Origin: Patescibacteria group bacterium
GTDB lineage: Bacteria > Patescibacteriota > UBA1384 > UBA12157 > JAENIV01
Direction of reading: 5' to 3'
Length of the DNA: 64,000 bases
Assembly: GCA_041666185.1 (NCBI GenBank)
Contig: JBAYHL010000001.1
Location: 69,073-133,072 of the forward strand
Shown here: positions 11,985 to 13,053 of the stretch, piece by piece
Layout of the letters: each line of letters begins with the position of its first letter
How positions within the stretch are numbered: the first letter of the stretch is position 1
Position numbers and translations under genes: made by a program
The notes under the pieces: model-generated
What the model saw: only the letters and a program-made list of their open reading frames with translations
Told to the model about the DNA's origin: nothing
Databases searched by the model: none

Positions 11985-12599
11985 ATAATATCTAAAGAAA
12001 ATTTATTAATATCTTGGCAGGAATTCAAATTAGGCAAGGGTAGTAAATGCGATGTTCAAGTGTTTGAGCATGATTTAGCTGAAAATTTATTTTCTCTTCA
12101 TAATGATTTGAAAAATAAAACATATCGACACGGACATTATACCTCATTTTATATTCATGATCCAAAATTAAGACACATTCATAAGTCTAGCGTCAGAGAT
12201 CGAGTTTTACATCATGCGGTAATGAGAATGATCGAACCAATATTTGAGAAAAATTTTATTTTTGATTCATATTCTAGCCGAGAAGGCAAAGGCACCCATA
12301 AAGCTGTTTTAAGATTAAAAGAGTTCACATGGAAACTCTCCAAAAACAATACTAAAATAGTCTGGGCATTAAAATGCGATGTTAGAAAATTTTTTGATTC
12401 AGTCGATCATCAAATCATTTTTGAGCTTATAAAAAAGAAAGTTTCCGACCCCGATACTTTGTGGCTGCTAAAAAACATCATTGATAGCTACCCTATGCGT
12501 CTCGATTTGCGCCGCAAATCGAGAGAGAGAGAGAGAGAGAGAGAGAGAGAGAGAGAGAGCCTAAGGCTCCGCCTTCGGCCGCGGAACTCCTCTTGGTAA
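11913..12599 (+). CDS. DGR reverse transcriptase, N-terminal part (RT motifs 1-4), ending in the (GA)n-encoded (RE)n tract
   Basis: Motifs include HDPKLRHIH, SVRDRVLHHA and KCDVRKFFDSVDH. The frame terminates after a poly-Arg/Glu tract. Confidence 0.7.
   Translation: MVGFMDNRDIAESSVILHQNLYDQIISKENLLISWQEFKLGKGSKCDVQVFEHDLAENLFSLHNDLKNKTYRHGHYTSFYIHDPKLRHIHKSSVRDRVLHHAVMRMIEPIFEKNFIFDSYSSREGKGTHKAVLRLKEFTWKLSKNNTKIVWALKCDVRKFFDSVDHQIIFELIKKKVSDPDTLWLLKNIIDSYPMRLDLRRKSRERERERERERESLRLRLRPRNSSW
12521..12559 (+). repeat. (GA)n microsatellite, 39 nt, inside the RT gene
   Basis: Read directly. Confidence 0.9.
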
Positions 12600-12612
12600 T
12601 TTAACAAGTCAG

Positions 12613-13053
12613 TTGTTCTCAAATATATATCTCAATCCGCTCGATCAGTTTATTAAAAGAGACCTTAAAGAAAAATATTACATTCGCTATGCTGATGATT
12701 TTGTGATTTTGAGTTGTGATCGGGATCATTTAGAGAATCTTATCCCAATATTAAGGTCATTTCTTACTGATGATCTTAAGCTAGAATTGCACCCAGATAA
12801 GATTATCTTGCAAAAATGGAGCCAAGGAATCGACTTTCTAGGATATGTAATTTTTCCATACCATACTGTGCTACGAACAAAAACGAAACAAAGAATGATG
12901 AGAAAAATAAGGAATAATTGCTATCTTTTGAAAGAAGGCCGTATGTCTAGAGAGGCTTTTAATCAAGCTCTGCAATCATATATAGGAATTTTGAAACATT
13001 GCCGCTCTCACGTGTTACGCGATAAGATTGAAACCATCGTTAAAGAAGTCTGA
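12613..13053 (+). CDS. DGR reverse transcriptase, C-terminal part (PLGNLTSQ DGR signature, YADD catalytic motif, thumb); frame +1 relative to N-terminal part
   Basis: The frame is open from 12565 (AFGRGTPLGNLTSQLFSNIYL...) and includes YADDF. Confidence 0.7.
   Translation: MFSNIYLNPLDQFIKRDLKEKYYIRYADDFVILSCDRDHLENLIPILRSFLTDDLKLELHPDKIILQKWSQGIDFLGYVIFPYHTVLRTKTKQRMMRKIRNNCYLLKEGRMSREAFNQALQSYIGILKHCRSHVLRDKIETIVKEV

Follow-up and report, generated by a model that had tools for sequence, protein, structure and literature searches.

A Probable Recent Reverse-Transcriptase-Null Allele of a Diversity-Generating Retroelement at a GA Microsatellite in a Patescibacterium

Introduction

Diversity-generating retroelements (DGRs) are abundant in the Patescibacteria, or Candidate Phyla Radiation (CPR). 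To our knowledge, little is understood about the ways in which natural DGRs have their mutagenesis restrained or turned off. Here we describe a DGR of a Patescibacteria group bacterium in which the reverse transcriptase (RT) gene is broken at a (GA)n microsatellite. The DGR lies in a stretch of 64,000 nucleotides, called the window below (assembly GCA_041666185.1, contig JBAYHL010000001.1, positions 69,073 to 133,072 of the forward strand). The described systems closest to it are the BPP-1-type DGR of Bordetella, with the reverse transcriptase bRT, Avd, a template repeat (TR) and a variable repeat (VR), and the DGRs of other CPR/Patescibacteria. The cassette of the window has in common with them an RT motif 4 of the form (I/V/L)GxxxSQ, YADD, a bAvd gene, a 126-nt TR, two VRs, each at the 3' end of a target gene, and adenine-specific mismatches between the repeats. 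The form (I/V/L)GxxxSQ has been described as motif 4 of DGR RTs (PMC3521204). For the microsatellite, the nearest described case is Helicobacter pylori, where CT/GA dinucleotide repeats in outer-membrane protein genes, for example sabA, are contingency loci (PMC2715451, PMC4081817).

Results

The Break in the Reverse Transcriptase Gene

In the window, the RT is divided between two open reading frames (ORFs) on the plus strand. The frame-0 ORF spans motifs 1–3, the hairpin of a loop and an arginine–glutamate run, (RE)n, and then continues as an out-of-frame tail, SLRLRLRPRNSSW, to a stop at 12597–12599. The (RE)n run is encoded by a perfect (GA)19G tract of 39 nt (12521–12559, plus strand). This tract is 100% pure, is the sole dinucleotide repeat in the window and has the highest Tandem Repeats Finder score, 78. 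The remaining part of the enzyme is in the +1 frame: GSAFGRGTPLGNLTSQ with motif 4, YADD (motif 5), motifs 6–7 and the thumb, up to the stop at 13051–13053. In a profile search, the +1-frame stretch 12571–13050 matched RVT_1 positions 117–205. The two ORFs overlap by 32 nt (12565–12596). An earlier note on this DNA had correctly described the split at the GA tract, the frame-0 stop and the catalytic part open from 12565 in the +1 frame. It had placed the break between motifs 4 and 5, but this numbering was off by one: PLGNLTSQ is motif 4 (PMC3521204), so that the break falls between motif 3 and motif 4.

The same note held that a change in the GA length cannot rejoin the two halves, and this is so. 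Directly 3' of the tract, a TAA (12562–12564) stands in the +1 frame, which is the native one, and the window reads ERERERA*GSAFGRGTPLGN across the end of the tract in this frame; the +2 frame is closed by a TAA at 12602–12604. The in-frame tract lengths at this RT are 29, 35 and 41 nt, and in the window no tract length alone restores the ORF. The first potential start codon in the +1 frame is a TTG at 12613, which is 3' of motif 4, so that motif 4 would be present in neither product. Split-protein complementation was rejected on this ground, there being no +1-frame start between 12565 and this TTG. Judged from its sequence, the window RT cannot work as written; without recoding it would give no active enzyme, and the DGR would be off in the window genome. 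The window comes from a contig of 224,914 nt present at NCBI and JGI. The NCBI annotation contains the 146-aa C-terminal fragment alone, named 'MAG: reverse transcriptase domain-containing protein [Patescibacteria group bacterium]'.

An Intact Allele in a Sister Assembly

An exact-protein match of the GIY-YIG gene of the cassette led to a sister assembly, the 50.1-kb contig ENA ERZ27249449:k141_651985 (loci L003, L005 and L170), and also to short Logan contigs from SRR6484324 (L006). Over 20,981 nt (window positions 33677–54657), the ENA contig shows 100% identity to the window. Its comparison with window positions 9628–17429 gave 27 differing positions:

VR1: 10 positions, 9 at TR adenines and the non-adenine position 9743
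VR2: 11 positions, all at TR adenines
Intergenic: 1 position, a single-nucleotide polymorphism at 9838, 58 nt downstream of VR1
GA tract: 4 positions, a 4-nt indel, 35 nt in the ENA contig and 39 nt in the window
Position 12562: 1 position, a T in the window where the ENA contig has G

All 27 differences in the 28.8 kb compared fall within the 3-kb DGR cassette. The RT of the ENA contig is uninterrupted and 374 aa long (...IIDSYPMRLDLRRKSRERERERERERAEGSAFGRGTPLGNLTSQ..., the loop reading ...RERERAEGSAFGRGTPLGN), and the gene call of this allele (L003:2298) agrees with an RT start at 11925 in the window. With its 35-nt tract, the intact allele is translated as (RE)n-A-E-G-S-A-F-G-R-G-T-P-L-G-N. 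The 374-aa RT and the 146-aa fragment of the window share one 90% cluster. The Logan contig SRR6484324_378762 (L006) is the same as window positions 12530–15903 except for a G at 12562; it ends inside the GA tract and holds the GAA codon and at least 30 nt of GA. The codon 12562–12564 is GAA (Glu) in both k141_651985 and SRR6484324_378762, and TAA in the window.

Set against this counterpart, the window allele carries two lesions in the native frame, namely 4 additional nucleotides of GA, which shift the frame, and a GAA>TAA nonsense change. The earlier proposal that one +1 event would be needed to fuse the halves is replaced by this result: the native frame crosses the tract into the TAA, so that the two lesions are the +4 nt and the G>T at 12562. 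The clustering of the differences in the cassette exceeds what neutral drift predicts, and points to DGR activity being under selection, to local hypermutability or to consensus choices driven by heterogeneity. For the clustering of all 27 differences, including the two point changes that are not of the DGR type (9743 and 9838), possible causes are selection, cross-talk of the VR paralogues in assembly and local mutability.

Further alleles were sought with exact-flank DNA scans using GATTTGCGCCGCAAATCGAGAGAGAG, which gave no match in metagenome or genome contigs, and exact-product look-ups of both broken ORFs gave no further contigs. A scan of viral contigs for CAAATCGAGAGAG... returned unrelated genes only. 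As a separate observation, two unrelated IMG/VR phage contigs (L167:5849–5880 and L169:4170–4200) contain (GA)n inside an ORF, with the best frame shifting across the tract. These phage ORFs may represent another repeat-interrupted gene.

Recent Activity of the Retroelement

The mismatches between TR and VR fall at TR adenines in 17 of 17 cases for VR2 of the window, and in 18 of 18 and 15 of 15 cases for the two VRs of the sister contig. VR1 of the window has TR-adenine differences and one non-adenine change (9743), which is unique to the window allele. The VRs of the two otherwise identical assemblies differ at TR-adenine positions. This indicates that mutagenic retrohoming took place after the genomes diverged and that the DGR was recently active in the population. 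The earlier view that the RT was functional until recently gains support from these differences. The change at 9743 is a single site; it would fit the absence of re-homing since the RT was lost and is suggestive in this respect.

The Loop at the Site of the Break

The GA tract lies between two hairpins:

12500–12524: hairpin 1, with the arms TCTCGATTTGCG / CGCAAATCGAGA forming a perfect inverted repeat of 12 bp; the 3' arm extends into the GA tract
12559–12579: hairpin 2, GCC[T]AAGGC-TCC-GCCTTCGGC

In the sister allele, which has G at 12562, all 9 bp of the stem of hairpin 2 pair; the T of the window breaks one base pair. The fold of the loop has an energy of −38.6 kcal/mol (z = −2.65) in the sister allele (L003) and −32.6 kcal/mol (z = −0.88) in the window. 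The GC content of the loop is 0.59–0.60 versus 0.33 for the gene. The data make no case for a functional RNA at the loop, since the fold is significant in the sister allele only and the hairpins are conserved in relatives without compensatory changes. An Rfam search gave no match at the RT loop.

The nearest database RT proteins, with 60–70% identity to the query RT, all translate a variable loop at this site, IIDS(F/Y)P-x(15-25)-(R/K)G(T/I)PLGNLTSQ. A check of the spacing between IIDSY(P) and GxPxGNLTSQ in orthologues had been proposed in the earlier note; the relatives have the translated x(15-25) loop there, and the loop is native. In the homologue P0012, the protein at the loop reads RERERAIGSAARGIPLGN (PRERERAIGSAARGIPLGN), and at the DNA level (GA)8G is followed by GCAATTGGCTCTGCGGCTCGCGGT. 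Together with the reading of the intact sister allele, this shows that in the window the native frame passes across the GA tract and meets the TAA.

Three relatives were compared directly: the Berkelbacteria RTs of VFKW01000026.1 (L007) and JAPLVK010000022.1 (L002/L008, P0004), and the Patescibacteria RT of DATDZV010000092.1 (L001, P0012). They are 64–73% identical to the intact allele (73% for L007) and have the loop at the same site, with (GA)n of 38, 11 and 17 nt, respectively, and a GC-rich hairpin 3' of the tract. Their cassettes are arranged as in the window, with a target containing an AAA_5 domain, bAvd on the opposite strand, and the RT. In L007 and L002, a hairpin homologous to hairpin 1 of the window (9 bp in L007 and 8 bp in L002) is followed by (GA)n and a GC-rich hairpin 2, and the sequence 5' of the tract is different in L001. 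GA tracts of 17 nt, in frame, were also found at the same RT site in L023 and L105. The three relatives are all intact and in frame; the out-of-frame tract and the nonsense codon occur in the window alone. The alignment of the intact protein with bRT (8ub7) falls into two blocks and skips residues 187–216, so that the loop is an insertion when compared with the DGR RT of known structure. A surface loop of ~30 residues before motif 4 is native to the RT of this Berkelbacteria-like lineage.

The same site was surveyed in DGR RTs of CPR/Patescibacteria (loci L001–L166). From the IIxSF helix to motif 4, the junction measures between 9 and 105 nt, with a mode of 21 nt, and about one fifth of the distinct sequences surveyed have junction loops of 33–105 nt. 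Among 14 distinct loops of at least 54 nt, 10 contain significantly stable GC-enriched palindromes; these belong to several unrelated sequences and are all in frame. Examples equivalent to window positions 12492–12588 are the following:

L105:3131–3232
L061:3517–3576
L139:2835–2918
L148:1011–1118
L153:3517–3606

The loops in L064, L148 and L153 resemble a widespread repeat of the 'CHPE..SE...ILRFAQNDK' type. Small palindromic elements seem to have a hotspot, or a tolerant landing pad, at this loop site.

The Cassette and Its Neighbours

The window is AT-rich (36% GC) and contains a full DGR cassette with two targets, a GIY-YIG gene, the TR, the bAvd gene and the RT:

7651–9783, plus strand: target gene 1, with VR1 at its 3' end
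9655–9780, plus strand: VR1, from comparison with the TR
9795/9867–10856, plus strand: target gene 2, with VR2 at its 3' end
10728–10851, plus strand: VR2, from comparison with the TR
11051–11335, plus strand: GIY-YIG nuclease-family gene (PF01541, E = 4.3e-11)
11428–11553, plus strand: TR, 126 nt, from TR–VR comparison
11607–11966, minus strand: avd of the bAvd family (PF22296, E = 5.9e-18), divergent from the RT and overlapping its start
11913/11925–12599, plus strand: N-terminal RT ORF, frame 0 (RVT_1 profile 8–100)
12565–13053, plus strand: C-terminal RT part, +1 frame (RVT_1 profile 117–205)

The assignment as a DGR follows from an Avd gene of the bAvd family adjoining the RT (the PF22296 match is to 11607–11984, minus strand), from the RT motifs (I/V/L)GxxxSQ (PLGNLTSQ at 12592) and YxDD (YADD at 12688), and from VR1 and VR2 differing from the TR essentially only at TR adenines. 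The closest solved structure to the RT is bRT (PDB 8ub7, E = 3e-45). A Pfam search gave no domain in the product of the second target gene.

Several features of the layout were observed in passing. The GIY-YIG gene (94 aa) lies within the cassette between VR2 and the TR, and its sequence is the same in all three assemblies. The genes avd (minus strand) and RT (plus strand) are divergent, and their 5' ends share ~40 nt (11925–11966). The TR is upstream of avd on the RT strand, which places an antisense gene between the TR and the RT, unlike the layout of the BPP-1 prototype. Outside the cassette, an Rfam LOOT RNA motif (RF03000) was matched at 62954–63077 with 60.6 bits versus a gathering score of 46.4.

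Discussion

We consider, with a probability of roughly 0.7, that the window contains a recent within-population RT-null allele of an ordinary, recently active DGR, produced at a hypermutable microsatellite. Recent pseudogenisation was among the options listed in the earlier note, and it is now favoured because the sister assembly, identical elsewhere, has an intact RT. A pure dinucleotide repeat of 35–39 nt is expected to slip often by slipped-strand mispairing. The GA tract would have gained two units, from 35 to 39 nt, most likely by replication slippage, with loss of the frame, and three bases downstream of the tract, GAA would have changed to TAA in the native frame. The more economical order may be the nonsense change first, after which an unconstrained tract would drift out of frame two times in three; with near-zero background divergence (~26 kb), the G>T is the rare event. 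Alternatively, the order could be the reverse, or a single complex event of slippage plus misincorporation could have produced both lesions. Slippage may be promoted further by the perfect hairpins on both sides and by the ability of (GA)n.(TC)n to form H-DNA. Three points are inferred, namely the slippage mechanism, the order of events and the reality of the allele as opposed to an error of the consensus. In a comparison with the MEGAHIT contig over 28.8 kb of AT-rich sequence, no further indel occurs in the window, which argues against a generally error-prone assembly.

Several points weigh against this explanation. A consensus error in the source assembly or PCR stutter at a 19-unit repeat is possible. 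The assemblies are three in all, probably from one population and perhaps not fully independent. The two lesions are at most 45 nt apart in an otherwise identical 28-kb background, which is more than neutral drift predicts, and two lesions so close would imply selection for loss, an artefact or a locally raised mutability. For the G/T change, the direction is deduced from function, the distant relatives being too different at this codon to serve as an outgroup.

It is unlikely that the break is an artefact of assembly or consensus, the organism having an intact allele with GAA and 35 (or 41) nt of GA, and the repeat length and one base being mis-called in a heterogeneous, hairpin-rich, low-complexity stretch. 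Such an error would agree with the GAA in two other assemblies of evidently the same population, one of them with an in-frame 35-nt tract, and with the confinement of every inter-assembly difference to a single region that is heterogeneous in the population. The Logan contig stops within the GA tract, which indicates that the tract is hard to assemble; however, a short read easily spans 39 nt. Stutter leaves the G>T outside the repeat unexplained, and an error of 4 nt needs two slippage steps. Outside the cassette, no other indel or substitution against the sister contig occurs in ~26 kb. If the break were nevertheless an assembly error, the finding would be ordinary.

Another possibility, also distinctly unlikely as an explanation of the break, is that (GA)n is a contingency locus. 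Slipped-strand mispairing would reversibly turn the DGR RT on (29, 35 and 41 nt) and off (37, 39 and 43 nt), and the window would be an off variant later locked by the nonsense codon. The RT has a long pure repeat, (GA)19.5, inside its ORF, and it is the only one in 64 kb. Its length switches the frame between assemblies otherwise identical over 21 kb (35 nt, in frame, and 39 nt, out of frame), a polymorphism measured in two alleles only. A pure in-frame tract of 38 nt is kept in the RT of a different species with 73% identity (L007), shorter tracts occur in the more distant RTs L001, L002, L023 and L105, and perfect hairpins stand on both sides of the tract. On the other hand, the number of measured tract lengths is two, the TAA in the off allele means that slippage cannot reverse it, and a loop that accepts many unrelated inserts may hold a neutral tract. 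Besides a probable false anchor (L164), the window alone is out of frame among 159 related loci. Our literature search found no publication on a repeat-controlled, phase-variable or frameshifted DGR RT. The more general idea is that pure (GA)n, with a perfect hairpin on each side and in a loop that the RT can dispense with, has been maintained as a contingency locus. DGR hypermutation would then be phase-variable in Berkelbacteria-like Patescibacteria, individual cells turning their mutator RT on or off at random through slippage of the repeat, with off and on variants in one population. This idea is doubtful but somewhat less so.

The earlier note had also suggested a small element inserted at this place, from a core shared with the dispersed repeats at 36040 and 43750. 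That a small GC-rich mobile element of this family, with copies at ~36040 and ~43760, entered the RT and broke it is, in our view, very improbable. The sharing of the 11-mer core with these repeats was confirmed: CGGCCGCGGAA occurs 3 times versus 0.18 expected, and the 17-mer GCCTTCGGCCGCGGAAC has 3 matches at no more than 3 mismatches in the window versus 0.08 expected. The loop is also more GC-rich than the gene, as noted above, and in other lineages the long loops found at this position of the RT resemble inserted palindromes. A disrupting insertion, however, does not agree with the presence of the sequence in the intact allele and in the loops of relatives. The intact allele contains and translates GGCTCCGCCTTCGGCCGCGGAA, CGGCCGCGGAA within the RT is ordinary coding sequence for F-G-R-G-T, and the stretch encodes (R/K)G(T/I)P, which is conserved and leads into motif 4. 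The module is in frame and common to RTs that are 64–73% identical, so that any insertion would be ancient and not the cause of the break. The similarity to the two-copy family (36037–36053 and 43762–43796) is short and marginally beyond chance; the other two copies are one family, which makes the RT match effectively a single coincidence (p ~0.1). There is no presence/absence polymorphism between the alleles, the intact one having the same hairpins and GC-rich sequence, and no close relative without the 12495–12582 segment, together with a target-site duplication in the window, was found.

The two copies of this family outside the RT have features of their own. At 43756–43796, in a minus-strand ABC ATPase gene (43677–44741), there is a 36-nt GC-rich in-frame insert, GGCCTCCGGCCGCGGAAATTTCTGACCGGA, with a duplicated ATTATA. 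It adds 12 residues (NSGQKFPRPEAY) near the C-terminus and is also present in the sister contig. This insert looks like a mini-element with a target-site duplication. At 36020–36125 (minus strand), just upstream of a tRNA-Glu gene (35906–35981), lies a degenerate copy of the 5' part of this tRNA-Glu (TTTGTGGCGCCGTCGT...CTAGAGGCCTA). This degenerate copy contains a 30-nt hairpin-like insert rich in GC and has a copy of the CGGCCGCGGAAATTTCTGAC repeat after it. It was not called a tRNA by ARAGORN or Rfam, and may be the remnant of a duplication or integration event.

Finally, programmed recoding into a full-length RT is hardly credible: one +1 shift within the 32-nt ORF overlap (12565–12596, e.g., at CUU-C before the rare CGG) would fuse the halves, the matching codons CCT 12492–12494 and CCT 12589–12591, between which a translational bypass could run, are separated by 97 nt (1 mod 3) with hairpins between them, and a purine-rich Shine-Dalgarno-like stretch lies upstream, but the sister allele, nearly identical, is an ordinary ORF without interruption in which the whole loop is translated, the native frame defined by homologues crosses the tract into the TAA, and the broken configuration is conserved nowhere, a frame break being present in no related locus of the 159-locus survey except the window and the probable false anchor L164. 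The programmed frameshifting listed as an option in the earlier note fails in the same way, the sister allele and 158 other surveyed RT loci being in frame, that one anchor apart. Two specific candidates were rejected: a translational bypass of the gene-60 type between the two CCT codons, since the whole stretch is part of the translated protein in homologues and in the sister allele, and a +1 frameshift at CUU-C/CGG, since it shows no conservation and the native frame runs into the TAA.

The RT-null allele of the window, if real, forms with the sister allele a natural RT-on/RT-off pair in genomes otherwise identical over at least 26 kb, with VRs diverged at template adenines. If the tract switches often, two classic mechanisms of localized hypermutation would be linked, with repeat phase variation controlling a DGR. 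The allele also matters for annotation: with the 146-aa fragment, DGR surveys would score this cassette as RT-less or degenerate. The kinds of phenomena involved, a DGR and microsatellite-mediated gene inactivation, are already known, and the explanation is mostly ordinary.

In comparison with BPP-1-type DGRs, the cassette described here differs in having avd divergent from and overlapping the RT, and an internal GIY-YIG gene. bRT has ~3 residues between motifs 3 and 4, whereas the RT here has an RE-rich loop of ~30 residues encoded by hairpin-(GA)n-hairpin; the window RT differs further in carrying two lesions. As in the sabA-type loci of H. pylori, an intragenic pure dinucleotide repeat, whose length varies between near-identical genomes, sets the frame of the ORF. 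Those loci control surface or restriction-modification genes, and their repeats are near the 5' end; here the gene is the DGR RT, a mutator, and the repeat is mid-ORF in a translated loop. Reversible switching in the population would be hypothetical here, and the window allele is also locked by a stop codon. Truncated and frameshifted DGR RTs were noted in the DiGReF survey as well (PMC3521204). Unlike for those RTs, the intact counterpart is known here, and the lesions are one microsatellite step and one substitution.

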